From contig JACRHB010000220.1 of the NCBI GenBank assembly GCA_016217725.1, positions 11,970 through 75,969 of the forward strand: a stretch of DNA of 64,000 nt. Direction: 5' to 3'. Below the pieces are notes generated by a model, which had not been told where the DNA came from, did not search any database, and saw only the letters and a program-made list of their open reading frames with translations. Shown here piece by piece: positions 24,042 through 60,205 of the stretch. The position numbers and the translations under genes were made by a program. This DNA is from Nitrospirota bacterium. Lineage in GTDB: Bacteria > Nitrospirota > Thermodesulfovibrionia > UBA6902. Within the stretch, counting starts at the first letter, position 1. Every line of letters begins with the position of its first letter.

Positions 24042-25115
24042 ATGCCGAAAACAAATGAAGCGACTGATACGGATTTGAAAGTAATAGAGTGGCTTCAGCA
24101 GGTCGACCGGGAACGAGGGTGACGTCTTTGATAAACGCTGATGACATAAAAATCCTTATCAAAGAAGGGGAAGGGCTTACCGTCGAATTCAAAGAGCGTT
24201 TTACGTCGCGCATTGATGAAGATATTGTTGCATTTGCAAACACCAAGGGCGGGATAATTATTCTGGGCGTCAGAGATGACCGGACTGTAAGCGGCGAGAA
24301 ACTGACAAATGATCTTAAAGCCCGCATCAATTCCGTTGCAAGGAACTGTAATCCCCCGGTTCAGGTAAAGATAAAACAATTACAGAACATCATAGCCATA
24401 GAAGCGCCTCAGGGGGAGGAGAAACCGTATAGTTGCAGTTCCGGTTAATGCCGCCGTACTTTTCCTGATGAAGCATTTAAACCGCCGCAGCGAAATAAAA
24501 GGCATAAATCGTAACGACGTCTATGAGATACCTTTTGAGGCCTTGCGCGAGGCAATCGCCAACGCAATAATTCATCGGGACTACAGCGTGCGCGGCACAA
24601 GTCTTATGGTTGAAGTATATGACGACAGAGTTGAGATAATAAATCCGGGCATATTCCCGGGACGTCAAATGAAAGATTTCGGCAAGATTTCCGTTCGGAG
24701 AAACGAACGTATTGCCGACCTCTTTTTCCGTATGGATAAGGTGGAGCGCGCAGGTACGGGAATAAGGCGGATGAAAGAGGCAATGGCGGAGGCCGGCTTG
24801 CCTGTGCCGGACATTAGACAGACGGATTTTTATACAATTATATTTAAACGGCCAATTGAACGGGCCGGGGTAAAGGTCGGAAGAAAGTCGGAGAGAAAGT
24901 TGGGTGAAAAGTTGGGTGAAAAGTTGGGTGAAAATGAAAAAAGAGTTTTAGAAATTATTGTAAAAAATAAGTTCGCAACAATAACTGAGCTTTCCAGGTC
25001 ATTGGGAATAAGCACGACCGCTGTAGAAAATAATCTTGCAAAACTGAAAGCAAAAGAGATCATCAAACGCATAGGCCCTGATAAGGGAGGACATTGGGAG
25101 ATTATCGACTGCTAA
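24042..25115 (+). pseudogene. AlbA_2 (Schlafen-like) plus HATPase_c_4 plus HTH transcriptional-regulator-family gene, disrupted by frameshifts (fragments 24042-24122, 24089-24448, 24468-25115 in three frames)
   Basis: N-terminal AlbA_2 signature (GEGLTVEFKERFTSRIDEDIVAFANTKGGIIILGV), then a RecG-C-terminal-like ATPase domain (NAIIHRDYSVRGTSLMVEVYDDRVEIINPG) and a wHTH; homologues are single ~450-aa ORFs. Also contains a (GGGTGAAAAGTT)x3 tandem repeat at 24895-24936. Confidence 0.6.
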
Positions 25116-25284
25116 ATTTCAAAAACGATTTGATATTGTGTCGAAGGCAAATGAAGCGGCTGATGCGGATTTGGAAGCTGTTGAGAGGCAAAAGAGGGTT
25201 AGCAAGGCTTTCGTCTTTTTCAGAACTTTAAACTTTTATCAATTTTAAAGTAAAATTATCGAAGACAATTTTCAAGAGGAGATT

Positions 25285-26304
25285 ATGGATAACATAACTG
25301 TTAACCTTGATGGCATTCCAACTGAAATCAAACGATTAAAAATTCCCCTTAAGAAACTTATCCTCGATATAGAAAACCCCCGCATACAATATTTTCTTGA
25401 TACTCGCTTGAATGATGATGTAACTCAAGAGAAAATCAAGTTTGCTTTGGCTGAAGGCAATGACCAATACGAAAAGCTGAAAGAGCATATAGAAAGAAAT
25501 GGCGGCATTTACGATCCGATATGGGTTGTGCCCAAAGACGAATATTTTGTTGTCATCGAAGGCAACACAAGAGCTTTCATCTATGAGGAGTTGTCTGAAA
25601 AATATGTTAATGATGAGAAGTGGCATTCTATTGATGTATATCTTTTGCCATATAAGATCAATCGAAACGTTATTAATTTTATTCGATTGGAAAAGCACCT
25701 CTTTGGGCCTACACCGTGGGATGCTTATGAGAAGGCAAGAGAACTTTATCGACTAAATACAGATGAAGATTACTCACTGAAGCGACTCGAGCAACTAACG
25801 AAATTAAAAGCATCTGACATCAGAAATAATATTCAGGCTTTTATGGATATGGAGAAACAATATCTCCCTAAATACAATAAACCGGCTGAAAGACTCAAGT
25901 TCAGTTACTTTGTTGAATTCAGGAAAAATAAAGAACTGAAACGTATGGTCAAAGAGGGAAAAGTTTCACTTATGGATTTTTGTGATTGGGTTGGCGAAGG
26001 GAAGTTCAGACGCGGTGAAGATATACGTAAACTTCCATTAGTGCTTAAAGATGAACAATCAAGGCAAGCGCTTATTGATGATAGTTTTCAGGCAGCTCTT
26101 GATCAGTTGGAACAAAAGAACCCGGCGGCGAAATCAAAGCTTTTTGAGAAGATAGAGGATGTAGTTGAAGGACTTGAAGGTCTTCCTTTTGGCGAATTGG
26201 ACGAAATTAAAAGAGGACAACAACCGGCTAAGGTTGATTCCCTAAAAAGACTGCATTATGTGACAAAAAATCTTTTGGAAGATATAGGCACTCTTACTCA
26301 ATAG
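25285..26304 (+). CDS. ParB/Srx-fold (ParB N-terminal nuclease-like) domain protein, island gene 1
   Basis: ParB box-like LILDIENPRIQYF and arginine-finger-like VVIEGNTRAFIY; paralogous to 28124..29170 (shared ENPRI, V(I/V)EGNTR, WDAYEKA); ~33% GC. Confidence 0.55.
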   Translation: MDNITVNLDGIPTEIKRLKIPLKKLILDIENPRIQYFLDTRLNDDVTQEKIKFALAEGNDQYEKLKEHIERNGGIYDPIWVVPKDEYFVVIEGNTRAFIYEELSEKYVNDEKWHSIDVYLLPYKINRNVINFIRLEKHLFGPTPWDAYEKARELYRLNTDEDYSLKRLEQLTKLKASDIRNNIQAFMDMEKQYLPKYNKPAERLKFSYFVEFRKNKELKRMVKEGKVSLMDFCDWVGEGKFRRGEDIRKLPLVLKDEQSRQALIDDSFQAALDQLEQKNPAAKSKLFEKIEDVVEGLEGLPFGELDEIKRGQQPAKVDSLKRLHYVTKNLLEDIGTLTQ

Positions 26305-26711
26305 TGGCTGGGAACAGACATCAATTTATTCTTGGTTTGGTTGTTAAGAAGATGCGGGAAGAAGGGGCGGAGCTTTACGGCATTGATGGTAACTATCCAG
26401 GGCTCTTCGGCGAAAAAGTGCCATTGCCGCCTCAAATATTAAGACACCGCCCCGATGCGATAGGAATAAAAAGTAATGGGCAATTATGCATAGGGGAAGC
26501 AAAAACAGAGGGGGATATTCTCAATACAAGGACATATGAGCAGTTGCAGGACTTCACCAGTGTTGAAATAAACGGCTCAAAGTGCGAAGTATTTGTTGGC
26601 GCACCGCAATCCAGTGAAAATAATTTTGGAAAAAGTCTGGAGAAAACCGGATTGAAAGGATGTGATAATCTCCATGTACTTTATATTCCAGACGAAATAA
26701 TCAATGATTAA
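26304..26711 (+). CDS. small PD-(D/E)xK nuclease-fold-like protein, island gene 2
   Basis: 135 aa; ...HRPDAIGIKSNGQLCIGEAKTEGD gives the D...(E)xK spacing typical of restriction-endonuclease-like folds; start overlaps the stop of gene 1. Confidence 0.4.
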   Translation: MAGNRHQFILGLVVKKMREEGAELYGIDGNYPGLFGEKVPLPPQILRHRPDAIGIKSNGQLCIGEAKTEGDILNTRTYEQLQDFTSVEINGSKCEVFVGAPQSSENNFGKSLEKTGLKGCDNLHVLYIPDEIIND

Positions 26712-28134
26712 AGAGAAACAGCTTTTTGAACCAAAGACACAAGCCCTTCCACATCAAATAGAAGCTACTAATTATATTAATAATCACCAGGAGGTAGCTT
26801 TATTTGATGAGCAGGGATTGGGAAAAACAAAGATCGTCATTGATTCATTATGCTGTTCAATGAAGCACGGTGAAATTGAAGGGGTGCTTGTGGTATGTCC
26901 CATGTCTCTTATATACAATTGGGAGCAGGAGGTGCATAAACATTCTTTTCTTATTCCGGTTGTGCTTAAGGGCAGTGATAGAGAAAAAAGATATAAATTC
27001 ATGACAGGCGCAAACTTTTATATCACCAATTATGAAGCTGTTGTTGCTGAGACAAACAGAATAAAACGGTTTTGTAAGAGCCGCAAGGTTGCAATTGTGC
27101 TCGACGAATCTGCCCGCATAAAAGACCCTGCTACAAAAACCGCACAAGCGCTATTTGATTTGAGACCATTTTCAACAAAGAGAATAATCATTACCGGAAC
27201 CCCTGTTGCGAATAAGCCGATTGATCTATGGTCACAGTTTTATTTCCTTGATGGCGGGAAACTGTTCAGTGAAGACTTTAATGATTTCAAGGCAGAATTC
27301 AATGAGCGGCATACCTTATACAAGGATAATCTCGCTGAATTAAACACCATTGTTTCAGCCAACTCTCTCCGTCGCTGCAAAGACGATGTACTTGAACTTC
27401 CTGATAAGAGATTCATCAACGTATATGTCCGTCTTAAAGGGAAGCAGCTTGAACTCTACAATCAACTTCGCGAGGAATTAAAAATTGAAGTGCAGGACAT
27501 GGAGGGGAATGTTTTTGTTGATGAGGCCGAAAATATTCTCAAGAAATTACTCAGACTGACACAGATTGCAAGCAATCCTCTTTTAATTGATAAGGGGTAT
27601 GATGAGACTCCTTCCAAATTTATTATGCTTGATGACTTGCTCAACGATATTGCAGCAAGAAAGGAAAAGGCTATAATTTGGACAGGCTTTGTTGAAAATA
27701 TAATTATTTTAAAAAACAGGTTCAAACAATATAAGCCATTAATCATTCATGGTGATATTCCGGTTAAGGAACGGGCAGAAGCGGTCAAGGTCTTTCAGGA
27801 GTCAGAGAACAATATTATAATGATTGCAAATCCTTCTGCTGCACGTGAAGGGCTTACACTTACGAAGGCGAATAATGCGATTTACGTAGACAGAAATTTC
27901 AATCTTGTAGATTATTTGCAATCACAGGATAGAATACATAGAATATCTCAGACAAAAGAGTGTAATATATTCAAAATTCTTGCAAAAGATACAATTGATG
28001 AATATATTGATAGGGTCATTGATGTAAAAAAAGAAATAGCTGGTTATGTTCAAGGCGATTTAAAGAAAGTAAAAGTTGAAAGCCTTAATTTTCTTTTAAA
28101 CAAAACTGAACTCTTATGTATTCTTGGGGGGTAA
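26704..28134 (+). CDS. SNF2-family DEAD/DEAH-box helicase (compact, 476 aa), island gene 3
   Basis: Walker A DEQGLGKT, DExH VLDESARIKD, SNF2 motif TGTPVANKPIDLW, helicase-C motif VI QSQDRIHRISQ; 8-nt overlap with gene 2. Confidence 0.85.
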   Translation: MIKEKQLFEPKTQALPHQIEATNYINNHQEVALFDEQGLGKTKIVIDSLCCSMKHGEIEGVLVVCPMSLIYNWEQEVHKHSFLIPVVLKGSDREKRYKFMTGANFYITNYEAVVAETNRIKRFCKSRKVAIVLDESARIKDPATKTAQALFDLRPFSTKRIIITGTPVANKPIDLWSQFYFLDGGKLFSEDFNDFKAEFNERHTLYKDNLAELNTIVSANSLRRCKDDVLELPDKRFINVYVRLKGKQLELYNQLREELKIEVQDMEGNVFVDEAENILKKLLRLTQIASNPLLIDKGYDETPSKFIMLDDLLNDIAARKEKAIIWTGFVENIIILKNRFKQYKPLIIHGDIPVKERAEAVKVFQESENNIIMIANPSAAREGLTLTKANNAIYVDRNFNLVDYLQSQDRIHRISQTKECNIFKILAKDTIDEYIDRVIDVKKEIAGYVQGDLKKVKVESLNFLLNKTELLCILGG

Positions 28135-29170
28135 TGTGCCTGTAGAAACAATCACCGTATTAGGCAGAGATATAACTTATGAAATAAAAAATGTTGATAT
28201 ACACAACCTTGAATACTATCCGGAAAACCCTCGAATCAACTATATAATCAGCAGATATCCTCGTGGGAAAGTCACGCAGGATTTCATTGAACAAGAACTC
28301 TTAAAGTTAGATTCAACAAAGGAAAGGATAAAAGACCTCGAAGAAAATAAAGGTCTTTTAGATGAAGTCTATGTCGTTGAAAATAAAGTGGTCGAGGGAA
28401 ATACGCGGCTCTGTGCTTACAGAAGGTTGAGTCGAAAATATCCTGATGACACGCGATGGAAACGCATCAAATCCCGTATTCTTAAAGGTAAGATCAAAGA
28501 TGAAGAGCTTTTCTATATACTTGGCACTTTTCATATTAAAGGAAAGACAGAATGGGATGCATATGAAAAGGCCGCATATATACACAAAATGATCAGGATC
28601 CTCAATAAAAATCCTGAAGACATTGCAAAGCAATTAGGGAAACAGAAAAAGTCTATAGAAGCCATGCTAAGGGCATATGACGTTATGTCGAAAAAATACC
28701 TTACATCCTCTAATGAACCATCACTTGTAAACGGTGCGAGAGATGAACTTAAGAAATACAGTTACTTTGAGGCATTTTTTCTCCAAAAAGAACTGGCAAA
28801 AAAATCAGAGGATACTCCTGACTTTATCGATCAGTTTGTTGAATGGGTAAAGGAAGATAGGTTCAAGAAGGCGCAGAATGTTCGAGAGTTGCCAAAGATA
28901 TTAAGTCATAAGAAGGCGACGAAGGCTTTTTATGAAGGGGATGCTGAGGATGCATTTGATGAAGCCAAGCATATTCTTTATGAGCATAAGCCGGAGAAGG
29001 TTGACAGATTCTATAAAAAGGTAAGAGAATTTCGAGAGTTGATCCACGAGGCTGAGGCGTTTAAAATAAGAGATGAAATTGAGAGCAACAAGAATAAGAA
29101 AAATGAGTTAAGAGAGTGTTATAAAGATTTAAAGAGGTTTTGTAAGGAAGTGGGATTGGATGCTCAATAA
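28124..29170 (+). CDS. ParB/Srx-fold domain protein, paralog 2, island gene 4
   Basis: LEYYPENPRINYI and VVEGNTRLCAYRRL motifs; 11-nt overlap with the SNF2 gene. Confidence 0.55.
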   Translation: MGGNVPVETITVLGRDITYEIKNVDIHNLEYYPENPRINYIISRYPRGKVTQDFIEQELLKLDSTKERIKDLEENKGLLDEVYVVENKVVEGNTRLCAYRRLSRKYPDDTRWKRIKSRILKGKIKDEELFYILGTFHIKGKTEWDAYEKAAYIHKMIRILNKNPEDIAKQLGKQKKSIEAMLRAYDVMSKKYLTSSNEPSLVNGARDELKKYSYFEAFFLQKELAKKSEDTPDFIDQFVEWVKEDRFKKAQNVRELPKILSHKKATKAFYEGDAEDAFDEAKHILYEHKPEKVDRFYKKVREFRELIHEAEAFKIRDEIESNKNKKNELRECYKDLKRFCKEVGLDAQ

Positions 29171-30185
29171 GCCAAAGGAGAGGATCATGAAAAGAACATT
29201 TAAGGCGATTGAAATGGTACAAAATAAATGGAAGTTTTATGTGTTTAGTATAAAATCCGACTTGTTATACAAAATAGCTTATATCAGTAGGAGACACGAG
29301 AATAAGGAAGAAGGATATCAGCGAAATCTGTCAAAAAAACGCGCAAGAGAAATATATGATTATATTTTTACCTTACACGGTGTTATCCCCAATAATATTA
29401 TTCTGAACTTTGATACGAATCTAAATTATGATACAAAAAGTCAGACAATTTCCTTTAAAGATGATGAAAATATTGCGTGGATTATTGATGGTCAACATAG
29501 GCTGTATGGCTTGTCTTTAAGCAAAAAACCCATTGATGTTATGGTGGTAGCTTTTGAGAAATTAGATATACAAAATCAAGCAAAAATATTTAGGGTAATT
29601 AACTCCACCCAAAAAGGTGTTAATGCGTCACTTATCTATGATCTTATTGACTTGGTTAAAGATGCGAGTTTTCTTGAGGAACGTGCTCATGAACTTGCAA
29701 AAAAACTCAATAGCGACCCGGAGTCACCATGGTATATGCAAATAAAAATGTTGGGGATAGGGGCTGGCCTGATTTCTCAAAGCGCATTTGTAAATAACTT
29801 AATACTTTTGTTGGATGAAGAAAGACGGGCACCATTGCAGGTATATACAGAAGAAGAGCAATATGGCATATTAAAAAATTATTTCAATGCAGTCAAATAC
29901 TCATTCCCAAATGACTGGGGACAGGCGAATTCCTTACTCACTAAGACAATGGGATTTTACTCATTAATAGCCGTACTGCCAACTGTTTTACAAATGTGCT
30001 CAGGCAACTTTACGACTGATTCGGTAATTAAAATACTTGAACCAATAAAGGATTATAATTTTGCAAGTAGTGGACCATTGAAAGGCGTTTCCGGCAAGGC
30101 TGGGGTTGAGAGAATCACATCTGAAATAAACTCTCTTTTAACAGCAACAAGGAAATCAAAGAAGACGCCGATAATAAAGCTTTAA
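29160..30185 (+). CDS. DGQHR-domain protein (DndB/DpdB-like ParB-superfamily), island gene 5
   Basis: GYQRNLSKKRAREIYDYI ... WIIDGQHRLYGL: the diagnostic DGQHR motif, plus an FxxxN motif (FRVINSTQ); 11-nt overlap with gene 4. Confidence 0.8.
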   Translation: MLNKPKERIMKRTFKAIEMVQNKWKFYVFSIKSDLLYKIAYISRRHENKEEGYQRNLSKKRAREIYDYIFTLHGVIPNNIILNFDTNLNYDTKSQTISFKDDENIAWIIDGQHRLYGLSLSKKPIDVMVVAFEKLDIQNQAKIFRVINSTQKGVNASLIYDLIDLVKDASFLEERAHELAKKLNSDPESPWYMQIKMLGIGAGLISQSAFVNNLILLLDEERRAPLQVYTEEEQYGILKNYFNAVKYSFPNDWGQANSLLTKTMGFYSLIAVLPTVLQMCSGNFTTDSVIKILEPIKDYNFASSGPLKGVSGKAGVERITSEINSLLTATRKSKKTPIIKL

Positions 30186-30187
30186 TC

Positions 30188-31021
30188 ATGTTCCATAAAA
30201 TCGTTGCTAATTTTAGAGAAGTTAGTGGAGTGTGTGAAGGGTTTGTAAAAGATGCTGTCAGAACAAATCCTGCATTACCGTTATCTTTAATTACACATAA
30301 ATTCCAACCGTTTTATTCTAATGAGTTGAAAAATAAATTTTTCAAAGAAGTTAACCTTTATTTAGACAAGGCCATGTATCAATACATAATAAGTCGTTCC
30401 CTGTTGCATGAAGGTATTTTTTCTTGGGGAGCAGTAACACAATATTATGCCAATTTCTTTGCAATTTCTGGATTAATAAGGCTACATGAAAATGGATTTT
30501 CAAGGATAGGCAATTTAGATGTAGAGGTTCAACAGCAATCTGATATATATGAAATTAGAAAAACTAAAACAGAGGGACTACACAGAATTGTTTGGTCTAA
30601 ATTTTATGCCCTATACAAAGGGTTTGATTATAAGCCTCAGATCTTTTATACAGTCTATTCACCAATTAATAATAACAATTATTTTGAATCAGACAGGCGC
30701 AATGACATTAACTACAATCCAGCATCAGGATATCAAGAAATTTATCAAACGTATAGCACGGTGAAGTCTTTAATAAAAGAGCGCACAAAAGATGCCTATT
30801 CTGCGGACAAGATTGAATTAGCAAATGAATGGATTGATTCAGATACAAGAACTCAATACAGAATCAGATTGCTCGCAAATATTATTTCTGAAATAGACGC
30901 ACTTAGTCATTTCCCTACTCACGTCAAGGAACGATTAATAAATAGAGAGAAATTTATTCAACGATATGAAACGGACAAAAGATATCGGGTTCGTTTCTTA
31001 GGCTGGTTAACAGGTGAATAG
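30188..31021 (+). CDS. hypothetical protein (277 aa), island gene 6
   Basis: No recognisable motif; AT-rich codon usage as in the rest of the operon; 3-nt gap from gene 5 and 8-nt overlap with gene 7. Confidence 0.5.
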   Translation: MFHKIVANFREVSGVCEGFVKDAVRTNPALPLSLITHKFQPFYSNELKNKFFKEVNLYLDKAMYQYIISRSLLHEGIFSWGAVTQYYANFFAISGLIRLHENGFSRIGNLDVEVQQQSDIYEIRKTKTEGLHRIVWSKFYALYKGFDYKPQIFYTVYSPINNNNYFESDRRNDINYNPASGYQEIYQTYSTVKSLIKERTKDAYSADKIELANEWIDSDTRTQYRIRLLANIISEIDALSHFPTHVKERLINREKFIQRYETDKRYRVRFLGWLTGE

Positions 31022-32396
31022 AATGAATATACTTCTTGTTGAACCAGGTTACAAAAATAAATATCCACCTCTTGGTCTTATGAAAATATCTGCATTCCAC
31101 AAACAGCGCGGTGATAACGTACGTTTTATAAAGGGACTAAACAAAGAGGTCAAAGCACAAATGTGGGATAGAATTTATATAACCACCCTGTTTAGTTTTT
31201 ATTGGAATGAAACTATTAATACTATCAGATACTATGAATACAGCATACAAGACCCTCAGAATCTTTTTATAGGCGGGCCGATGGCAACGCTTATGTCAGA
31301 CGAAATAGAGAAAGAAACAGGATATAGGCCGGTAAAGGGATTACTGAATGAAAAAAGAAAATTGAGGTTGCCGAATGATTATAAAGTTGACAGCCTGGTT
31401 CCCGACTACAGCATCCTTGAACAAATAGAGTACAAGTATCCGGCATCAAACGCCTATTTTGCTCATGCAACAAGAGGCTGTATAAGAAAATGCCCGTTCT
31501 GCGCTGTTCCCAAAATTGAACCTTTTTATACAGATTATATCCCCTTAAAGAAACAGATAATAATGATTAATGAAAAATATGGAGAAAAGAAAGACCTTCT
31601 ATTGCTGGATAACAATGTCCTTGCATCTTCACAATTTGACAAAATAATTGATGAAATCAAAGAAGCGGGGTTTTATAGGGGAGCTAAATTAAATAACAGG
31701 AACAGATACGTAGACTTTAATCAGGGAATAGATCTGAGACTCCTTACGAAAGAGAAAATGAGGCTGTTGGCTGAACTTTCCATAAAGCCTTTGCGAATTG
31801 CCTTTGACCACATTAAATTGGAGAAGGAATACGTTAAAAGAGTAGAGTGGGCTTCTGAATTCGGAATAAACAATTTATCAAATTATATCCTATATAACTT
31901 TCATGACACTCCAGAAGATTTTTATAGACGGTTAGAAATAAACATTGAACTGAATGAAAGATTAGGGACTAAAATATTTTCATTTCCGATGAAATATATC
32001 CCCATAGATAATAGGGATCGAAAGCATAAAGGCAAGTATTGGAATCTTCGATACTTGAGAGGTATTCAATGTATTTTACAAGCCACACACGGAGTCGTAA
32101 GTCCCCAAAGAGAATTTTTTCATGCAGCATTCGGGAGAAACGTCGAAGCTTTCAAAAAGCTTCTTTTAATGCCTGATAACTATATTATCTTTCGCGAAAA
32201 TCACAAGAATAATGGTACTGCTGATTGGGCTAAGATATACGATTCCTTATCTAATGAGCAACAAAAGGAATTTCACGACATAGTTTTTGAGAATCAATTC
32301 AATAATGGATTGCTGTCGAAATATTCAAAGATAAATATTCTCTTAGCTCACTATAAGGTGCCGAAACAACAAGTTTCTCTAAAAGAGCTTTCTTAG
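31014..32396 (+). CDS. radical SAM enzyme with an N-terminal B12-binding-like (Rossmann) domain, island gene 7
   Basis: Canonical CxxxCxxC (ATRGCIRKCPFCAV); the N-terminus MNILLVEPGYKNKYPPLGLMKISAFHKQRGDNVRFI resembles the N-terminal domain of class-B radical SAM enzymes; ~34% GC. Confidence 0.7.
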   Translation: MNRMNILLVEPGYKNKYPPLGLMKISAFHKQRGDNVRFIKGLNKEVKAQMWDRIYITTLFSFYWNETINTIRYYEYSIQDPQNLFIGGPMATLMSDEIEKETGYRPVKGLLNEKRKLRLPNDYKVDSLVPDYSILEQIEYKYPASNAYFAHATRGCIRKCPFCAVPKIEPFYTDYIPLKKQIIMINEKYGEKKDLLLLDNNVLASSQFDKIIDEIKEAGFYRGAKLNNRNRYVDFNQGIDLRLLTKEKMRLLAELSIKPLRIAFDHIKLEKEYVKRVEWASEFGINNLSNYILYNFHDTPEDFYRRLEINIELNERLGTKIFSFPMKYIPIDNRDRKHKGKYWNLRYLRGIQCILQATHGVVSPQREFFHAAFGRNVEAFKKLLLMPDNYIIFRENHKNNGTADWAKIYDSLSNEQQKEFHDIVFENQFNNGLLSKYSKINILLAHYKVPKQQVSLKELS

Positions 32397-32604: not shown

Positions 32605-33777
32605 ATGACGACGATGGCGACAAAGGCGAAAAATCACGATGATATTTATATCGATAGAATATTGAGCCTGCCGGGGCTGTTGGAGAAAAAATCCTATTTC
32701 CTTTTCGGGCCCCGCCAGACGGGGAAATCGTCCCTTATCCGGCATACCCTGAAGGGCGCAAAGGTCTACGACCTCCTGGACACATCGATATTTCTGGCTC
32801 TGAGTCAAAACCCAGGCCGTCTGTCCCAGGAATTGAGCGCCGGAGACCGGATCGTGGTAATCGATGAAATACAGCGCCTGCCCATTCTGCTCAATGAGGT
32901 TCACCGGCTGATTGAAGAGAGAGGCCTTCGTTTTTTGCTCACCGGCTCGAGTGCCCGGAAGCTCCGCGGCGGCGGCGTGAACCTGCTTGGCGGGAGGGCG
33001 CGTACGAAAAATCTGCATCCTCTCACCTGCCGGGAGCTCGGGCGGCATTTCGACCTGTTCCGTGCAATCGAACGCGGCTTGCTGCCGTCCATATATTTTT
33101 CGGATGATCCACGCGCGGATCTTCGCGCCTATGCAGGCTCTTACCTGCAGCAGGAGATTATTGCCGAAGGGGCCGCCCGCAATGTGCCTGCCTTCAGCCG
33201 TTTCCTGAAGGTTGCCGCATTATGCAACGGCACGATCGTCAATTTTACTAATATAGCCAATGATGCCCAGGTGCCCCGCACGACAGTGTACGAGTATTTC
33301 GAGATCCTCAAAGACACTCTTATCCTCCACGAGCTTCCTGCCTGGCGCCGGTCATTAAGGCGCAAGCCTTTGGCCTCCTCGAAGTACTATTTTTTTGATA
33401 TCGGCATAGTGTCGGAGCTGCAGGGTCGAAGATTCAGGCCCGGCACGCCTGAATTCGGAGAGGCCTTTGAGACATATATTATGCATGAGCTCCGAAGCTA
33501 TATCGATTATATTTCTGCCGAGCCTCTCAGCTACTGGCGGTCGACGTCAGGTTTTGAGGTGGATTTCATCCTGGGCGATCATACGGCCATTGAGGTGAAG
33601 GCAAAAGAGAATGTATCGGTACAGGAGCTTAAATCGCTGCGTGCCCTTAAGGAAGAAAAGATATTGAAGCGCTACCTTTGTGTAAGTCTCGAATCCCGTA
33701 CAAGAACGGTCGACGGAATTATTATTCTGCCATACCGGAAATTTCTCGACGGCTTATGGAGCGGAGAGTATTCATGA
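32605..33777 (+). CDS. AAA-family ATPase (AAA_14 plus DUF4143 architecture)
   Basis: Walker A GPRQTGKS, Walker B VVIDEIQ; C-terminal DUF4143-like region; GC-rich (~60%). Confidence 0.85.
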   Translation: MTTMATKAKNHDDIYIDRILSLPGLLEKKSYFLFGPRQTGKSSLIRHTLKGAKVYDLLDTSIFLALSQNPGRLSQELSAGDRIVVIDEIQRLPILLNEVHRLIEERGLRFLLTGSSARKLRGGGVNLLGGRARTKNLHPLTCRELGRHFDLFRAIERGLLPSIYFSDDPRADLRAYAGSYLQQEIIAEGAARNVPAFSRFLKVAALCNGTIVNFTNIANDAQVPRTTVYEYFEILKDTLILHELPAWRRSLRRKPLASSKYYFFDIGIVSELQGRRFRPGTPEFGEAFETYIMHELRSYIDYISAEPLSYWRSTSGFEVDFILGDHTAIEVKAKENVSVQELKSLRALKEEKILKRYLCVSLESRTRTVDGIIILPYRKFLDGLWSGEYS

Positions 33778-33836: not shown

Positions 33837-34367
33837 ATGGAAATCAAAATCAACAAAAGCACATTGTCACTGGTTGAAGGCGATATTACAAAACAGGACA
33901 CGGACGCAATAGTGAATGCGGCGAATAAAACCCTTCGCGGCGGAGGCGGCGTTGACGGGGCGATCCACAGGGCGGGCGGCCCGAAGATCCTTGAGGAATG
34001 TATAAAGATTGGCGGCTGCGAGACCGGCGAGGCTGTGATAACCACGGGCGGGAATCTCAAGGCCAAATATGTAATCCATACGGTCGGTCCGGTTTACAGG
34101 GACGGCCTGCACAATGAGCCGAAGCTTCTTGAGAACGCTTATAGAAACAGTCTGAAACTTGCTTCGTCGAAGGGTATAAAAAGCATCGCCTTCCCGTCAA
34201 TAAGCACGGGAGCTTACGGTTATCCATTGGAAGATGCAGCGGAGATCGCATTAAAGACCGCGATTAATTATCTCTGGGAGCATCCCGACATAGAACTGGT
34301 CCGTTTTGTCCTTTTCGGACAGAAGACGCTTGAGGTTTATGAGAAGAAACTGAAGCCACTGGTTTAG
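33837..34367 (+). CDS. macro-domain protein (O-acetyl-ADP-ribose deacetylase, YmdB/MacroD-like)
   Basis: 176 aa; DIT..DAIVNAAN..L.GGGGVDGAIHRAAG and ...AFPSISTGAYGYP motifs. Confidence 0.9.
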   Translation: MEIKINKSTLSLVEGDITKQDTDAIVNAANKTLRGGGGVDGAIHRAGGPKILEECIKIGGCETGEAVITTGGNLKAKYVIHTVGPVYRDGLHNEPKLLENAYRNSLKLASSKGIKSIAFPSISTGAYGYPLEDAAEIALKTAINYLWEHPDIELVRFVLFGQKTLEVYEKKLKPLV

Positions 34368-34451
34368 CAGGAAACTCAAAGTGTCATGCTGAACTTGTTT
34401 CAGCATCTAAAGACCCTGAACCAAGTTCAGGGTGACAAAATGGGACAAGAT

Positions 34452-35388: not shown

Positions 35389-36873
35389 TCAGCCTATTCC
35401 TTCGTACTTCTTCATCCTCCAGTATTCCGCATTGAGGGTCTCCACGATATAGTCAACCCTGCGCGTTCTTATCAGCTTTCCGAGCGCGTCAAGAAAGACC
35501 TTCGGGTGTCTGAAGAGTATGGTGAACAGTATGGAGTAGAAGCTTATGTTGGTCTTCTGTGTGAAATAATTCTTCACAAAGAAGGCGTTCTGCAATTTTC
35601 TTCGGATGTCCCTGAGCTCCTCTTTCTTGAACGTTATCGCCATGAGGGGAAGCTCGGGCTGTCTGTGCGCCCATATTTCGGAGAACGGCAGATTGGGATC
35701 CAGCCAGCCGTTTTTAATAGCCATGTCATAAATGTCGGTTCCGGGATAGGGCGTCAGGAAATAAAAGGCGGTATAGTCCGCCTGGATATCTTTTGCCACC
35801 TGGAAGCTCTGCTCTATATCGTCTCTGGTTTCTTCAGGGTTTCCGATAATAAAGGTTGCCAGGGTCCTGATGTCGAGGTCCTTGCAGAGTTTGAAGGAAT
35901 GTCTTATCTGCGCGGTCCTGTCTCCGGCGCCTCCTTTACCGAGCACCCTGAGGATCTTTTCGGAGCCGCTTTCAACGCCGAAATCAAGCTGCACGAGACC
36001 GCTGTCTTTCATCATTTTCATCAAACCCATGTCCGTCTGGTCCACCCTGGACTGGCAGCCCCACTTGATGTTCAGGTTTCTACGCTTTAATTCCTCGCAA
36101 TATTCTTTCACCCATTTGGGACTCAGCGTAAAGGTGTCGTCGCAGTAATATATTCCCTTTATGTCGTAATTTTTATAGAGATATTCTATTTCATCAACTA
36201 CGTTCTTCACCGAGCGTCTTCTTGTTTTTCTGCCGAAGATGTTATGGCTGCCGCAATAGATGCATTTGAAAGGGCAGCCCCTGCTTGTAACAATGGTGGT
36301 CTGGTTCTTGGTTGCGTAGCCTCTTATTATTCCGGGCGGCTTGAGGTACGGCTTCATGTCGATAAGGTGCCGCGCAGGGAAAGGGATGGTATCCAGGTCT
36401 TGTATCATTTCGCGCCTGCCGTTATCTACGATGCCGACGTTGTCGCGGTACATGACGCCTTTGACGCCTGCAAGGCTTTGGTTGTTTCCCAGCTTCTCGC
36501 ATACCTCGACAATTGTGTCTTCGCCTTCGCCGACCACTATAAAATCAACGCCGAACTCTTCCATGGTCTCTTTCGGCTTTACGGTCGTATGAACTCCGCC
36601 GGAGCAGAATATTTTGCCGGGCAATTCCTTTTTCAGGTTTTGCATCAGATGCAGCGCCCTCTGGTATCCTACCGTCAGGAAGCTGAGGCCTATCAAGTCA
36701 GGGTTGAAATCCTTTATCTCATTCAGCATGCTTGCCTGATATTCGGGGTCTGAATCATAAATCTGAACGGCGTGTCCCGCCTTTTCAAGGACTGCGGCGA
36801 TATACATCAGTCCCAACGGCGGCACAACGTTGTTGCCGTCTAACACTTGAGCATTAACCAATGTTACTCTCAT
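35389..36873 (-). CDS. B12-binding domain radical SAM protein (class B)
   Basis: N-terminal B12-binding Rossmann fold (VTLVNAQ...VVPPLGLMYIAAVLEKAGHAVQIYD) and CxxxCxxC (SRGCPFKCIYCGS). Confidence 0.85.
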   Translation of the reverse strand: MRVTLVNAQVLDGNNVVPPLGLMYIAAVLEKAGHAVQIYDSDPEYQASMLNEIKDFNPDLIGLSFLTVGYQRALHLMQNLKKELPGKIFCSGGVHTTVKPKETMEEFGVDFIVVGEGEDTIVEVCEKLGNNQSLAGVKGVMYRDNVGIVDNGRREMIQDLDTIPFPARHLIDMKPYLKPPGIIRGYATKNQTTIVTSRGCPFKCIYCGSHNIFGRKTRRRSVKNVVDEIEYLYKNYDIKGIYYCDDTFTLSPKWVKEYCEELKRRNLNIKWGCQSRVDQTDMGLMKMMKDSGLVQLDFGVESGSEKILRVLGKGGAGDRTAQIRHSFKLCKDLDIRTLATFIIGNPEETRDDIEQSFQVAKDIQADYTAFYFLTPYPGTDIYDMAIKNGWLDPNLPFSEIWAHRQPELPLMAITFKKEELRDIRRKLQNAFFVKNYFTQKTNISFYSILFTILFRHPKVFLDALGKLIRTRRVDYIVETLNAEYWRMKKYEGIG

Positions 36874-36904: not shown

Positions 36905-39313
36905 TTAACCGCAGGCGCAGCACCCGCATTCCACCTTAGGTTTTGAGCCTTTCATGGTTACTGAATAAAACTGTATAAACTGAACTTTCTTATAGAGATA
37001 ATTCTTCGTCAATTGGACGTCGGGGAAGCCTGCGTTTTCAGCGGCGTCTTTGAACCTCTTATCCGTGAGGGCTCCCGACAGGCAGGCGTTCCACAGCTCT
37101 TTGTCCCTTTTCAGATATCCGGGGACGGGCTTGTCCGAGACAATATCCGAGATGATAAATCTGCCGCCGGGCTTTAAAATCCTGTAGATCTCATCAAGAA
37201 CCTTTGTCTTGTCTTCCGTAAGGTTGATGACGCAATTGGAGATGACGAGGTCGACCGTATTGCTCTCAACCGGCAGCTCCATTATGTTCCCGCTTTTGAA
37301 TTCGACGACGTTGTAACCCAGAACCTTTGCGACTTTCTCAGCGCTTACCGTCGCCTTTCCCACCATTTCATCGGTCATGTCTATCCCGATTACTTTACCT
37401 TTAGGCCCCAGCTTTTTTGCGGCTATGAAGCAGTCTATGCCTCCGCCCGCGCCCAAATCCACGATAGTCTCTCCTTCTTTTATATCCGCAAGGGCGGCGG
37501 GATTTCCGCAGCCGTAAGACACGTCAAGGACTTCGTTCGGAATATGCTCCAGGTCTTTCGGGCTGTACCCGGTAGGGCAGTAATAATCGGCAACCGGCAT
37601 ATTGGCGGCCTTTGAAAATTTTTTCTTCACGGTCTTTGTAACGTGGCCTTTTATCTCGGGCTTGCATACTTCCTCGTCGTCTTCAACGTCTACAGACAGG
37701 ACGCAGGAGCAGTGGTAGCATCCGACCTCGAATTTCTTATCGAGCGGCTTGATCCCCGCGCCGAGATGCGACGGCAGCTTTGAGTCCATTGCGTTATAGA
37801 CAAGCGGCGCAGAGTATCCTTTACCGTCTTGTGCCGGAACCCCTTCTGAGGCCAGCTCCCAGATTATATCTTCAAACAGCGCCTTGTATGTCAAACAATA
37901 AGGGTCCCGCGCGGTTACGGAGCCTTTGCCGGTGTCAACCTCGCTTGCGTAATAACTGTGCGAGGTGCAGCCTCCCCCGCAAAAGAACTCAAGATAGCAA
38001 TCCCTGCATGCCGGTTTGTTGTGCACGCTGTTGGCCCTGCCCCTTGCCATGACCTTTGAATTCAGCCAGATGTCCTTCAGGGATTTCTTTCTTACCGAAC
38101 CGGCGTCAAAATAAGGGTCGCCGTTCAAGGATGCGCACGGATAAACATGGCCATCCGAGTTTACGCAGACTTTTTCAAAGCAGTTATTGCAAAGGTCGTT
38201 CTTCCGGCCTCTTTTTGTGCGCACGCGCACTTTCAGGGATTCTATATTATCGAGGATGAGATCCTGCTCCTTGTATGACTTTTTAAGGTTTTTCATGGCA
38301 AGGGCGATGCGCTCCGAAGGCACGAATAATTCATTAACGTTATTTGCGCCCCGGCCCTTTGCGTGCATCCAGAGGATGTTATGCTCTTTAATTCCCAGCT
38401 TTGATAAAAACCGGGAAGTCTTTAATATCTCTTTCTCGTTATATTTATTGATCGCCGTTGAGATGATAGGGGTTATTCCGATGCCGACAAGTTTTTTAAT
38501 ACCGTTCACGGCGGCGTCAAAGCTGCCTTTGCCGCGCAGCTTGTCATGGATCCCGGCATTCGGGCCTTCCAGGCTTACCTGGAGGAGGAGTTTCGGACCC
38601 ATCACCTTTTTCAACTCGGCAATCCTCCTGTCGTCAAAGAGGGTGGCGTTTGTGAGGACGATGAGCTCGCGCTTCTTTATTTTTGTAATATATTTTATGA
38701 GCTCAAATATCCCTTCTTTAATAAACGGCTCCCCCCCCGTAATATAAAACCGTTTAACGCCGAGCTTTATCGCTTCATCTACGACGCCTTTGATCTCTTC
38801 CGTAGTTAATTCCTTTTTCAGGCTGCTCCCTGCGCTGACAAGACAGTGCTTGCACCTGAGATTGCAGGCGAGGGTGTAGTATATCCACAACTCGTCCAAT
38901 TTATAAGGCGCGATCGCATTGCTTCTGCCGGGATATTCAGGTCGTTCGAGCTTTTTATTGGATACGAACTCAAGCAGTCCGGCGGCGCTGAGAAAATCGG
39001 CGACCTCTTTTCCGGCCTGTGCGGTGTCCGGGACGTTATATTTTTTACGGACGGCTTCCTGTATCTCTGAAACCGTGTGTCTGCCGTCACACAGCTTGAT
39101 GATCTCCGCCCCCGTATTATTCACGCTGATCCAGTTGGGCGCCTTGGGATCAATGAAAAGGGCTATCCCGTCTCTTTGTTTTTTAACGTATTCAGGAGCG
39201 TACAGGACGTCGTCGGGACGGAATTCCTTGAGCTCGGGATTTGTGACCCTCCAGTAATCCAGACTGTATTTTTTTATCCGATCTTCTCTTGTATCGCAGC
39301 AGCCTTGCGCCAT
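36905..39313 (-). CDS. fusion protein: PqqD-like RRE domain, radical SAM/SPASM domain and a C-terminal class I SAM-dependent (ArsM-like) methyltransferase
   Basis: 802 aa; N-terminus matches the PqqD pattern (RPDDVLYAPEYV...DGIALFIDPKAPNWISVNNTGAEIIKLCDGRHTVSEIQEAV); radical SAM CNLRCKHC; SPASM CRDCYLEFFCGGGC; MT motif I VLDVSYGCGNP...IVDLGAGGGIDCF; Cys-rich C-terminus CGCCACG. Confidence 0.8.
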   Translation of the reverse strand: MAQGCCDTREDRIKKYSLDYWRVTNPELKEFRPDDVLYAPEYVKKQRDGIALFIDPKAPNWISVNNTGAEIIKLCDGRHTVSEIQEAVRKKYNVPDTAQAGKEVADFLSAAGLLEFVSNKKLERPEYPGRSNAIAPYKLDELWIYYTLACNLRCKHCLVSAGSSLKKELTTEEIKGVVDEAIKLGVKRFYITGGEPFIKEGIFELIKYITKIKKRELIVLTNATLFDDRRIAELKKVMGPKLLLQVSLEGPNAGIHDKLRGKGSFDAAVNGIKKLVGIGITPIISTAINKYNEKEILKTSRFLSKLGIKEHNILWMHAKGRGANNVNELFVPSERIALAMKNLKKSYKEQDLILDNIESLKVRVRTKRGRKNDLCNNCFEKVCVNSDGHVYPCASLNGDPYFDAGSVRKKSLKDIWLNSKVMARGRANSVHNKPACRDCYLEFFCGGGCTSHSYYASEVDTGKGSVTARDPYCLTYKALFEDIIWELASEGVPAQDGKGYSAPLVYNAMDSKLPSHLGAGIKPLDKKFEVGCYHCSCVLSVDVEDDEEVCKPEIKGHVTKTVKKKFSKAANMPVADYYCPTGYSPKDLEHIPNEVLDVSYGCGNPAALADIKEGETIVDLGAGGGIDCFIAAKKLGPKGKVIGIDMTDEMVGKATVSAEKVAKVLGYNVVEFKSGNIMELPVESNTVDLVISNCVINLTEDKTKVLDEIYRILKPGGRFIISDIVSDKPVPGYLKRDKELWNACLSGALTDKRFKDAAENAGFPDVQLTKNYLYKKVQFIQFYSVTMKGSKPKVECGCCACG

Positions 39314-42943: not shown

Positions 42944-43099
42944 CCGTGATCCGTGTCCGTTTAACGTGACCGTAAAAGAGGAAGGATCAATGAACAATGT
43001 GCAATTAACAATTAAAATCTCGCTTCCGCAATTGCTCATTGATAATTGTTCATTGTTAATTGTTTTTACGGACACGTTAACCGGACACGGTTCACAAGA
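42944..43099. repeat. ~155-bp long hairpin element (GTGTCCG / CAATGAACAATTG words) immediately upstream of cbiM; partner copy at 46001-46165 downstream of cbiO
   Basis: Outer arms cgtgatccgtgtccgtttaacgtgaccgtaaaa / ttttacggacacgttaaccggacacggttcac; inner palindromes caattaacaatt and caatgaacaat/attgttcattg. Confidence 0.7.
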
Positions 43100-43111
43100 A
43101 AGGAATACCCC

Positions 43112-44134
43112 ATGCATATCCCCGACGGTTATCTGAGTCCGCAAACGTATATACCTCTTTACGGGATAATGCTCCCGGTCTGGTACTGGGGCTCCAGGAT
43201 ATTAAAGAAGACTTTAAATGCGCGGCAGATACCTTTTTTGGCCCTCGGCGCCGCTTTTTCATTCGTCATCATGATGTTCAATATCCCGATACCCGGCGGC
43301 TCGACGGGGCATGCAGTCGGCGCTGCATTGATCGCAATTCTGTTAGGACCGTGGGCGGCGCTTATGGCCGTATCCATGGCGCTCATAATACAGGCGCTGC
43401 TTTTCGGCGACGGAGGGATTACCGCAATAGCGGCGAACTGTTTTAATATGGCTTTTATAATGTCTTTTTCAGGATATTATATTTATAAGCTTCTGAGTTT
43501 AAATTCCGGCTCCAATATCGCCCGAAGGGTCTTTGCTGCAAGTGTGGCGGCGTATATATCTATAAACCTGTCCGCCTTTTTTACCGCTGTAGAATTTGGA
43601 ATTCAACCGTACATTGCGCACAAGCCGGACGGCACTCCTTTGTACGGGCCTTACGGCTTGAACGTAGCGGTCCCGATAATGACGATTGAGCACCTTGCAT
43701 TTTTTGGATTTGTAGAGGCGCTGGTGACGGGATTGGTAGTCGCTTACATTGCGAAGACCGAGCCGGAGATGCTGAACATCTCCACTCCTGCGTTACAGAC
43801 GGCAGCAGACCGGCCGGCTTTTTCAAAGACGGCGAAAAGGCTCTGGATCGGACTCGCCGTACTTATTATTCTGACGCCCCTCGGGCTTATCGCCTCAGGA
43901 ACCGCATGGGGAGAATGGGGAGCGGAGGATCTGCTCGCAATATTCGGCTTTGTGCCTCAGGGGTTGAAAGGGCTTTCTAACGTTTGGCATTCTTTTTTCC
44001 CGGATTACTCGGTTCCGGGGATGGAGGGTCCCTTAATGCTTGCAGCGGGATATATCCTCTCCGCGCTTATCGCTACGGGTTTGATAGTGTTGACGGCCTT
44101 CGTCATCAGCAGGATAATGTTCAGAGGAAGATAG
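43112..44134 (+). CDS. cbiM: ECF-type cobalt/nickel transporter substrate-capture component CbiM/NikM with an extra C-terminal 2-TM (CbiN/PDGLE-like) extension; start at MHIPDGYLS
   Basis: Hallmark N-terminus MHIPDGYLS; ~7 TM in the first 245 aa; additional ~95 aa with 2 TM. Confidence 0.85.
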   Translation: MHIPDGYLSPQTYIPLYGIMLPVWYWGSRILKKTLNARQIPFLALGAAFSFVIMMFNIPIPGGSTGHAVGAALIAILLGPWAALMAVSMALIIQALLFGDGGITAIAANCFNMAFIMSFSGYYIYKLLSLNSGSNIARRVFAASVAAYISINLSAFFTAVEFGIQPYIAHKPDGTPLYGPYGLNVAVPIMTIEHLAFFGFVEALVTGLVVAYIAKTEPEMLNISTPALQTAADRPAFSKTAKRLWIGLAVLIILTPLGLIASGTAWGEWGAEDLLAIFGFVPQGLKGLSNVWHSFFPDYSVPGMEGPLMLAAGYILSALIATGLIVLTAFVISRIMFRGR

Positions 44135-44135
44135 A

Positions 44136-45065: not shown

Positions 45066-45117
45066 ATTCAAATAAGGAGGCTGAACGCCTCCTTGAATTA
45101 TCTTTGGGAAGTTTGAT

Positions 45118-50120: not shown

Positions 50121-50212
50121 TGCAGCGCCGGGAAGACTGACTTTCATTGTTTTCCCTTTTGCACTTCTGCACTTTTGTACTTTTGCACTTCTGCACTTTT
50201 GTACTTTTGCAC
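50048..50212. repeat. long hairpin of GTGCAGAAG/TGCAAAAG words (left arm coding, right arm reverse complement)
   Basis: gtgcagaagtgcaaaagtgcaaaagagcaatagcgcagaagagcagaag... / ...ttttgcacttctgcacttttgtacttttgcacttctgcacttttgtacttttgcac. Confidence 0.7.
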
Positions 50213-50233
50213 TAAAGAATCAAGAAAAATTTA

Positions 50234-51448: not shown

Positions 51449-51517
51449 AGAAGGACCATCTTCCGGAAGCCGGTCTTCTGAACTTTTGATCTTCTGCTCT
51501 TTTGCTCTTTTGCACTG
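51407..51517. repeat. GTGCAGAAG/TGCAAAAG word-repeat hairpin, copy 3
   Basis: gtgcagaagtgcaacagtacaaaagtgcaaaagg...tcttctgctcttttgctcttttgcac. Confidence 0.65.
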
Positions 51518-51526
51518 TTTGAAAAA

Positions 51527-55517: not shown

Positions 55518-55579
55518 CTGCATCCGGCAACGGAGCTGTTTTTATGATAATAAAATCAAGCTGAACAAATAACCGCGAT

Positions 55580-56863: not shown

Positions 56864-57023
56864 AGCCAATTTGTAGAAATTTGCGGCTGATATCTTTTCC
56901 TCCTGCTGGTTCAATCTTGTAGATTGAACCAACCGTTTAACAGACATTAAATATAAAGGTTCAAACTACAAGCCTGAACCAGCAGAGTCGGCTGTTAGCT
57001 GATAGCTGTCAGCTTTTTACATC

Positions 57024-58637: not shown

Positions 58638-58638
58638 C

Positions 58639-60057: not shown

Positions 60058-60064
60058 AGTTGTT

Positions 60065-60165: not shown

Positions 60166-60205
60166 ATAAGAGACACATAGGAACGTCTGCGGAATTGAAG
60201 TTAAA

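Follow-up and report, generated by a model that had tools for sequence, protein, structure and literature searches.

A member of a distinct mobile radical SAM family in a low-GC ParB/SNF2 island of a Nitrospirota bacterium, and its possible role in DNA modification

The radical SAM gene at 31014-32396 in a 64,000-nucleotide stretch of Nitrospirota DNA, here called the window, lies at the end of a compositionally distinct island, and other radical SAM genes of similar architecture are found elsewhere in the window. This arrangement raises the questions of whether the gene (rSAM below) is a copy of its resident neighbors or came with the island, and what reaction such an enzyme could perform among genes for ParB-like proteins, a helicase-like motor and a predicted nuclease.

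The low-GC operon and its genes

The forward-strand reading frame at 31014-32396 encodes 460 amino acids when counted from a GTG codon, in line with the initial annotation; since the homologs start with MKILLVEP, the true start is likely the ATG at 31023. The low GC content (about 34%) and AT-biased codon usage reported earlier were confirmed: the gene has 35.3% GC and a GC3 of 34.7%, compared with a GC3 of 56-71% in the four resident class-B paralogs and a host GC content of about 50%. The surrounding block at 25.2-32.4 kb has a GC fraction of 0.34-0.40, and its flanks about 0.45-0.52. The rSAM gene is the last of seven genes in a tightly packed operon (25285-32396, all on the forward strand), in which every gene has low GC and GC3 and starts and stops overlap or abut. 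A promoter-like site (25227-25256) precedes the first gene. Neither the ORF lists nor the repeat search showed direct repeats, an integrase or a tRNA at the island ends.

The first operon gene (ParB1, 25285-26304) encodes a 339-aa protein of the ParB/Srx superfamily with ENPR...EGNTR motifs, and the fourth (ParB2, 28124-29170, 348 aa) is its paralog, with 30% identity and an E-value of 1e-35. ParB1 demonstrates weak N-terminal matches to PD-Lambda-5_A and also matches phrog_3694, whereas ParB2 has weak matches to parB_part and PDC-M38A, and its Rhizobium ortholog is named 'ParB N-terminal domain-containing protein' by PGAP. The start of the second gene (26304-26711) overlaps the ParB1 stop. 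Its 135-aa product had no match in the family libraries searched and is a predicted PD-(D/E)xK nuclease by motif only, with RPD (positions 49-51) and EAKT (65-68) showing a conservation of 90% or more in an alignment of 23 proteins (that of the window and 22 unique homologs from other loci). The third gene (26704-28134) encodes a 476-aa SNF2-family ATPase/translocase (PF00176, 2.7e-40; Helicase_C, 2.5e-14), which matches the C-terminal motor of the PADLOC proteins ZorD (3e-64) and DpdE (6e-44).

The two genes between ParB2 and rSAM form an optional module. The first of them (29160-30185) encodes a 341-aa DGQHR-domain protein (TIGR03187, 3.2e-53), a DndB/DpdB-like NTPase of the ParB superfamily that matches DpdB of PADLOC with an E-value of 1.8e-35, and the second (30188-31021), which travels with it, a 277-aa protein with a possibly HEPN-like helical fold. 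The closest rSAM relative has a cassette without the DGQHR gene, and in the five-gene form of the cassette ParB2 is located directly upstream of rSAM.

Horizontal origin of the cassette

The initial annotation described rSAM as sharing its N-terminal architecture with five other class-B radical SAM genes of the window. Four of them, at 35389 (reverse strand), 48612, 55580 and 58639, are of this type, but the fifth (36905-39313, reverse strand) is a SPASM-type gene encoding a fusion of PqqD, radical SAM, SPASM and methyltransferase domains. The common architecture is real but remote: alignment of the rSAM family profile with that of the residents by hhalign gave a probability of 97.8%, an E-value of 1e-12 and 22% identity over 293 columns starting from residue 4, whereas BLASTP comparison of the individual proteins produced E-values of only 3e-5 to 0.1. 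The proposed end of the common N-terminal motif, G(H/D)xVxxxD, does not hold, as the island protein has GDNVRFIKG with an invariant K40-G41 pair where the residents have G-H-x-V-x-I-L-D. Similarly, where the residents have an invariant GGxHxT, the island family has GGPMAT.

A neighbor-joining tree (Poisson distances, 200 bootstraps) was constructed for the four residents, the island rSAM and its relatives. The residents form their own clade, split from the island protein and all its relatives in 200 of 200 bootstraps, and the island protein is sister to a relative with 90% identity (P0001). There is virtually no chance that rSAM is a resident class-B paralog with drifted codon usage, a reading which could draw on the architecture common to the four genes and the weak N-terminal similarity, but against which stand this tree, an identity of 16-20% to the residents versus 60-90% to genes of Nitrospirota, Brocadia, Treponema and others, a score of 16.8 bits with a resident-derived HMM (versus 612-693 bits for its source proteins), and the low GC common to all six co-operonic genes. 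The complete seven-gene order recurs in three MAGs, one of Nitrospirae and two of Brocadia (loci L005, L009 and L028), and the cassette recurs at 60-90% identity in unrelated phyla. Both the phylogeny, which the initial annotation had named as the check, and the gene order found elsewhere thus agree with its proposal that rSAM arrived together with the ParB, SNF2 and DGQHR genes.

Domain architecture and the question of cobalamin

The protein consists of an N-terminal Rossmann-like domain, a partial TIM barrel carrying the CxxxCxxC motif, and a C-terminal helical domain. The [4Fe-4S] cluster-binding motif (31479-31502) comprises C156, C160 and C163, which are invariant in an alignment of 28 family members, so that the cysteines noticed earlier withstand a proper alignment; the only other invariant cysteine is C353. 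Membership in the radical SAM superfamily is indicated by this motif, the partial TIM-barrel fold and a match to PF04055 that barely passes the gathering score (29.8 bits versus 29.5). Residues 156-171 have low pLDDT in the predicted model, which is expected because the cluster loop is modelled without its metal. The family is strongly conserved, with a mean column identity of 69% and more than 100 invariant positions in the alignment, a pattern more readily expected of an enzyme acting on a universal substrate than of a sensor. The invariant residues include E10, Y13, K16, F60, F62, W64 and M90.

The N-terminal domain (approximately residues 4-110; 31023-31343) has a Rossmann/flavodoxin-like fold, such as class-B enzymes use to bind cobalamin, but the fold does not in itself imply ligand binding. 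Its position before the radical SAM core is one of the features by which class B is recognized, and the two-domain fold matches MgmA and TsrM; the original class-B label, and the methylation deduced from it, thereby receive partial support. On the other hand, AprD4, RimO and MiaB match equally well, and the island protein gives no match to PF02310 (B12-binding) at E<=0.01, the four residents scoring 41-88 bits and two distant members of the rSAM family only 19-21 bits. AprD4 has a Rossmann-like domain yet binds no cobalamin (PMC12931638), and its equally good match means that the architecture is no proof of B12 use. Cobalamin is a possible ligand of the domain.

Neither the protein nor the family profile found a meaningful match among PDB sequences. 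Among the known systems nearest to the island protein are the class-B enzymes MgmA/QCMT (9ccb), TsrM (6wte), OxsB, CysS and TokK. The island protein differs from them in having GGPMAT instead of GGxHxT, an undetected PF02310 domain, no sequence match to solved structures and a C-terminal helical domain of its own; its genomic context is that of DNA handling and defense, whereas theirs is natural-product, cofactor or lipid pathways. The radical SAM diol dehydratase AprD4 (6fd2), an antibiotic-pathway enzyme with an aminoglycoside substrate, is only 12% identical to it. The methylthiotransferases MiaB and RimO are recognized by three auxiliary-cluster cysteines in the N-domain together with a C-terminal TRAM domain, and the island protein, which lacks these cysteines, falls outside this group. 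A CbiMQO cobalt importer is also encoded in the window; it says nothing about the island enzyme.

Gene neighborhoods and a possible role in DNA modification

The island gene is a member of a large, mobile and uncharacterized radical SAM family present in at least 582 species of bacteria and archaea, and also in plasmids and phages. No PADLOC or NCBIfam family covers it, and no paper describing it was found in the literature searched, the incomplete coverage of which leaves the absence of such a paper unproven. In the 81 loci examined, rSAM nearly always has as neighbors either ParB/DndB-type NTPases, SNF2/SF2 helicases and nucleases or a cassette resembling PbeA/PbeC/DndE. The order ParB1-nuclease-SNF2-ParB2(-DGQHR)-rSAM, with ParB1 kept upstream, was observed in about 29 loci. 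About 21 others contain PbeA (HKD nuclease and SF2 helicase), PbeC (CxC ABC ATPase), a small DndE-like gene and a terminal rSAM; a DGQHR fusion followed by rSAM and a PD-Lambda-5_A-like gene adjoining rSAM were found in five loci each. In three loci (L006, L034 and L046) a BglII-like restriction endonuclease is located directly upstream. The whole island in L006 lies between housekeeping genes and contains no conventional methyltransferase, making rSAM the sole candidate protector there; the Type E loci already have ordinary methyltransferases, so rSAM is not simply their replacement.

Rhizobium, Mesorhizobium and Novosphingobium carry adjacent DGQHR-rSAM pairs on conjugative plasmids, and in one protein (P0203) the C-terminal half of DGQHR is naturally fused to rSAM. 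This fusion is the exception among the longer members (P0148, P0164, P0125 and others), whose C-terminal extensions and insertions matched no Pfam family or neighbor cluster. By profile, the closest described family is phrog_9298, annotated as a phage 'radical SAM domain protein' (E-value 1.3e-52, island residues 4-349; examples are gp19 of Clostridium phage phiCT453B and a Bacteroides LoVEphage protein). Its members have the same N-domain and core, but are about 290-360 aa long, shorter than the island protein by a linker and its C-terminal helical domain, and are orphans without ParB or SNF2 partners. These compact relatives reside in early/replication regions of temperate phages, the usual place of orphan DNA methyltransferases, beside Dam and PAPS-reductase genes.

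The cassette can be compared with two known types of DNA modification systems. As in Dpd (DpdA-DpdB-DpdC with the DpdD-K helicases and nucleases), a DGQHR/DpdB-like ParB-fold NTPase adjoins a putative modifying enzyme, the SNF2 motor resembles the DpdE C-terminus, and the predicted common logic is a mark combined with an ATP-driven restriction module. At the same time, Dpd is defined by DpdA and an equivalog-level DpdB, whereas none of the seven island proteins matches the TGT (DpdA) or DpdC families and the DGQHR protein scores 118.9 bits with the NCBIfam DpdB model, under its cut-off of 300. As the candidate modifying enzyme of the island is a radical SAM protein, its chemistry must differ from that of Dpd. 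The likeness to Dnd and PbeABCD consists of the DndB-like protein of the window and, for PbeABCD, the terminal rSAM of the PbeA-PbeC-DndE-like cassettes; the obligate core, DndD or a CxC ABC ATPase paired with DndE (PMC10853773), is absent from the window cassette, which has no DndA/C/D/E or PbeA/C. The CxC ABC ATPase-DndE cores recruit various modification enzymes, those listed being phosphorothioation enzymes and cytosine methylases but no radical SAM enzyme, and the gene slot taken by rSAM holds DNA methylases in other members (PMC10853773).

We tentatively favor, with somewhat less than even confidence, the view that rSAM is the DNA-modifying component of a restriction-modification-like defense system. 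The enzyme would generate a 5'-deoxyadenosyl radical and with it, perhaps aided by methylcobalamin, place a carbon-centered mark on host DNA, most likely C-methylation of a base or sugar. An adjacent ParB-fold NTPase (ParB2 and/or DGQHR) would load it on DNA or open the DNA for it, in parallel with DpdB powering DNA modification by DpdA, and the small nuclease and SNF2 motor would attack unmarked DNA. DpdA indeed needs the ParB-like ATPase DpdB to modify DNA (PMC10164549, PMC12839542), and prophages often fuse ParB folds to DNA methyltransferases (PMC12704722). The genes coupled to rSAM, encoding the PD-(D/E)xK motif protein, SNF2, HKD-SF2 and the BglII-like endonuclease, are consistent with this scheme. 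The DNA or nucleotide substrate suggested by the initial annotation is strengthened by the context in 81 loci, plasmids and phages. We infer it, along with the chemistry, cobalamin use and a defense role, whereas the fold of rSAM, the anatomy of the genes, the horizontal origin of the cassette and its conserved linkage have been demonstrated. As a whole the cassette matches no validated defense system in PADLOC, and no B12-dependent radical SAM enzyme acting on DNA is listed in a 2026 review (PMC12931638).

A bolder and more doubtful proposal is that this would be the first radical SAM enzyme, possibly cobalamin-dependent, to write an epigenetic self-mark on DNA (C-methyl or other carbon-centered, beyond SN2 methyltransferases), as a module shared by ParB/SNF2 cassettes, Pbe/CxC-DndE cassettes and BglII-like endonucleases, with the compact orphan copied by temperate phages to evade them. 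The self-marks of prokaryotic immunity have so far comprised N/C5-methylation, phosphorothioation and 7-deazaguanine. If rSAM modifies DNA, a new chemistry would be added to them, B12-type radical SAM enzymes would gain a nucleic-acid substrate, and the subset of Pbe/CxC-DndE cassettes ending with rSAM would have found its modification partner; confirmation would establish a new way of marking DNA.

Other roles appear less probable. The enzyme might act on a free nucleotide or small molecule, much as viperins make ddh-nucleotides, to yield an antiviral chain terminator or signal, with the ParB-fold NTPases supplying or sensing the nucleotide; we regard this as unlikely. It seems similarly unlikely that the cassette has no immune role and serves mobile elements in their maintenance or competition; the ParB-like and SNF2 proteins, known also from plasmid maintenance, would then handle element DNA and rSAM would modify a protein or RNA partner (e.g. 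a ParB-like protein or tRNA) in the manner of MiaB/RimO. The missing methylthiotransferase cysteines in the N-domain argue against such an activity, and so do the linkage to Pbe/CxC-DndE cassettes, the BglII-like endonuclease and DpdB/DndB-like proteins, and chromosomal neighbors of defense-island type (AlbA_2, a macro domain and AAA_14/DUF4143, which corresponds to PDC-S01, as well as the toxin-antitoxin genes of L001). Less credible still is a radical effector or repair enzyme that breaks strands of invader DNA by hydrogen abstraction or reverses lesions, as spore photoproduct lyase does by radical chemistry, and leaves no self-mark. Separate nucleases (PD-(D/E)xK, HKD, BglII-like or MBL) are nearly always present beside rSAM, which would make a radical effector redundant; defense effectors usually vary, whereas rSAM is the most conserved gene; and the stand-alone copies in temperate phages speak against a DNA-destroying activity.

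The proposed modifying role is directly testable, as family members occur in cultured, tractable strains, namely on plasmid pR132505 of Rhizobium leguminosarum WSM1325 and on pNL1 of Novosphingobium aromaticivorans DSM 12444.

The radical SAM gene and its operon

The radical SAM gene (31014-32396, forward strand; 460 aa counted from a GTG) more likely starts at the ATG at 31023 (MKILLVEP), since its homologs begin at the equivalent position. It is the 3'-most of seven genes transcribed in the same direction, the others encoding ParB1 (25285-26304), a 135-aa protein (26304-26711), an SNF2 protein (26704-28134), ParB2 (28124-29170), a DGQHR protein (29160-30185) and a 277-aa protein (30188-31021). 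The gene ends overlap or abut, GC content is 0.34-0.40 across the block versus ~0.45-0.52 in both flanks, positions 25227-25256 contain a sigma-70-like site, and a search for an internal terminator found no convincing one in the block; thus the seven genes read as one operon. GC3 is 0.27-0.39 in all seven, as opposed to 0.57-0.71 in the four resident class-B radical SAM genes (35389 on the reverse strand, 48612, 55580, and 58639), confirming the AT-biased composition noted initially as shared with the island.

ParB1 and ParB2 are paralogs (E 1e-35) with ParB/Srx-type motifs in both, and PGAP names the Rhizobium ortholog of ParB2 'ParB N-terminal domain-containing protein'. The 135-aa protein, a putative nuclease, carries a PD-(D/E)xK signature, RPD...EAKT, at least 90% conserved in 23 aligned sequences. 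The SNF2 ATPase is similar to the motor of ZorD and DpdE. The DGQHR protein (TIGR03187, 3e-53) resembles DpdB and DndB, yet scores under their equivalog cut-offs.

The island protein belongs to the radical SAM superfamily and has a class-B-like layout. It barely passes the Pfam Radical_SAM threshold (29.8 versus 29.5 bits), and the CxxxCxxC motif reported in the initial annotation was recovered as C156, C160, and C163, invariant in an alignment of 28 family members. The N-terminal architecture said to be shared with the residents stood in part. By profile comparison, the likeness is real yet remote (hhalign probability 97.8%, E 1e-12, 22% identity over 293 columns from residue 4), but the residents' motifs GGxHxT and G-H-x-V-x-I-L-D are not kept, being replaced by GGPMAT in the family and GDNVRFIKG in the island protein, respectively. 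In BLASTP, its best match to a resident has E 3e-5, versus 1e-24 to 1e-73 among the residents themselves. Scoring of the B12-binding motif did not bear out the proposed B12-binding-like N-terminus: PF02310 was not detected in the island protein, whereas the residents score 41-88 bits. The count of five other class-B genes also needs correction, as an HMM built from the residents matches only these four in the window (island gene, 16.8 bits); the extra gene is probably 36905-39313 on the reverse strand, a PqqD, radical SAM, SPASM, and methyltransferase fusion.

The AlphaFold model (pLDDT 81, pTM 0.80) consists of a beta-alpha N-domain (~residues 4-110), a linker, and a radical SAM barrel with a helical C-terminal domain. 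Foldseek matches it to MgmA (1.5e-11), TsrM (1e-9), AprD4 (2e-8), and OxsB (1e-7). In RimO and MiaB the N-domain houses a second Fe-S cluster, which is not possible in this family because the 28-member alignment has no conserved N-terminal cysteines. AprD4 binds no cobalamin despite clustering with B12 enzymes (PMC12931638). The modelled architecture is thus class-B-like, but the layout alone does not fix the cofactor. Strong conservation of N-domain loops in the same alignment (E10, P11, Y13, K16, F60, F62, W64, G87, G88) suggests that this domain binds some ligand.

Origin, distribution and gene context of the family

In a neighbor-joining tree of the four residents, two phage homologs, and the island gene with its relatives, the residents split off on their own in 200 of 200 bootstraps, thus excluding placement within the resident clade and rejecting a resident paralog, as the initial annotation had argued. 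The sister protein, P0001, is 90% identical; the closest 120 of thousands of database relatives (60-90% identity) occur in Nitrospirota, Ca. Wunengus/Brocadia, and Treponema, among others. Joint arrival with the ParB, SNF2, and DGQHR genes, also proposed earlier, agrees with the identical seven-gene order in L005, from a Nitrospirae MAG, and in L009 and L028, each from a Brocadia MAG. At L090-L092, the P0001 cassette has only five genes and lacks both the DGQHR gene and the one for the 277-aa protein; this pair is thus an optional insert, gained or lost between near-identical cassettes.

Searched against 1.84 billion cluster representatives, the family profile matched only 2,478 clusters at E<=1e-3, 427 of them at E<=1e-30. 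The family is discrete and stays separate from class-B enzymes at large. It occurs in at least 582 species (one genome scanned per species); the matches listed include Nitrospirota, Planctomycetota, Thermodesulfobacteriota, Bacillota, Actinomycetota, Bacteroidota, Pseudomonadota, Chloroflexota, Thorarchaeota, and Thermoplasmata. NCBIfam and PADLOC 2.0 contain no model for it, and members bear generic names ('radical SAM protein', 'cobalamin-binding domain-containing protein').

Neighboring genes of 81 loci were clustered and the clusters annotated. About 29 loci have the order ParB1-nuclease-SNF2-ParB2(-DGQHR-X)-radical SAM, where the X position can be occupied by the 277-aa protein, by a protein with a metallo-beta-lactamase fold, by a membrane protein, or by a BglII-like endonuclease; a GHKL-like 'ATP-binding protein' often follows. 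In about 21 loci the gene is preceded by a large protein of no known family, PbeA (7e-213), PbeC/CxC ABC ATPase (7e-158), and a ~147-aa protein in the DndE/PbeD position. The radical SAM gene ends such cassettes at L016-L049 and others (e.g. L025, 2397-11401), and the conserved protein that precedes them, without a family match, has 900-1300 aa. A DGQHR fusion (~760 aa) lies immediately 5' of a shorter radical SAM gene in five loci, and in five more, of Lachnospiraceae type, a PD-Lambda-5_A-like ParB-fold protein adjoins it amid ordinary methyltransferases. P0203 is a natural fusion of a DGQHR C-terminal half with the radical SAM protein.

Sets of DGQHR, radical SAM, and ATP-binding protein genes occur on conjugative plasmids of Rhizobium, Mesorhizobium, Bradyrhizobium, Agrobacterium, and Novosphingobium, and this order was seen in the inspected pNL1 and pR132505 loci; pR132505 has a complete ParB-nuclease-helicase-ParB set ahead of it. 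A PIN-like and ATP-binding protein pair adjoins the DGQHR-radical SAM-GHKL-like set on both plasmids, and pNL1 encodes a second DGQHR protein (770 aa) on the opposite strand. Among phages, phrog_9298 (PHROGs) is a compact relative (E 1.3e-52), found in phiCT453B between the RusA gene and late regulators; its neighbors are PAPS-reductase and Dam genes in LoVEphage and HerA/NurA-type genes in Marinitoga virus 1.

Possible role in DNA modification

The radical SAM protein is the constant, highly conserved member, around which DNA translocases, ParB-fold NTPases, and nucleases vary. Temperate phages carry orphan methyltransferases, and orphan carriage of the radical SAM gene in phages is alike. 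The L006 island (ParB1-nuclease-SNF2-BglII-like endonuclease-radical SAM), which lies between MlaD and SecG/TIM/PGK/GAPDH, contains no conventional methyltransferase, so that its type II-like endonuclease has no other candidate protector. In related systems the corresponding slot is filled by DNA methylases or phosphorothioation enzymes (PMC10853773); precedents for a ParB fold serving DNA modification are DpdB with DpdA (PMC10164549, PMC12839542) and ParB-methyltransferase fusions (PMC12704722).

The simplest reading, to which we give slightly less than an even chance, is that the radical SAM protein would write a self-mark on DNA, and the nuclease and SNF2 proteins would restrict DNA lacking it. 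A nucleotide or small-molecule product is unlikely, and a non-immune role on mobile elements, with protein or RNA as the substrate, seems similarly improbable; a radical effector or repair enzyme is very doubtful, the remaining probability falling to other, unspecified roles. We rate the cassette as a predicted variant of modification-based defence, for which new DNA chemistry is a realistic prospect. No description of a radical SAM-based modification module common to the ParB/SNF2 and Pbe-type cassettes was found in the literature.

Surroundings of the island

Just 5' of the island, a Schlafen/AlbA_2-type gene is apparently split into ORFs 24089-24448, which by sequence reading rather than family scan appears to be the AlbA_2 part, and 24468-25115 (HATPase_c_4 and HTH), and may be a pseudogene. 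It is flanked by a 51-nt direct repeat (24043-24093 and 25139-25189, 78% identical), which may have arisen by duplication of a regulatory sequence or of an insertion site. An intact gene of like architecture lies upstream of a BglII-like endonuclease and radical SAM pair at L046. Directly 3' of the island are two genes of host-like GC, one for an AAA_14/DUF4143 ATPase (32605-33777; 1e-53 to PADLOC candidate PDC-S01), the other for a macro-domain protein (33837-34367). The island seems to have inserted at a small hotspot of defence genes. The 27-nt inverted repeat that follows (34382-34437, 81% complementary, 2-nt loop) is probably a terminator.

Further downstream, the four-domain fusion (802 aa, methyltransferase part class-I) adjoins the resident 35389-36873, on the same reverse strand, in what looks like a peptide-maturase (RiPP-type) pair. 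A cobalt ECF importer, CbiM(N)-CbiQ-CbiO (43046-45999), is consistent with a host making corrinoids for its many B12-type enzymes. The other three residents lie at 48612-63138 amid an M20 peptidase, a polysaccharide pyruvyl transferase, and TMEM260-like and PMT-like glycosyltransferases, which may form a glycan or lipid modification cluster.
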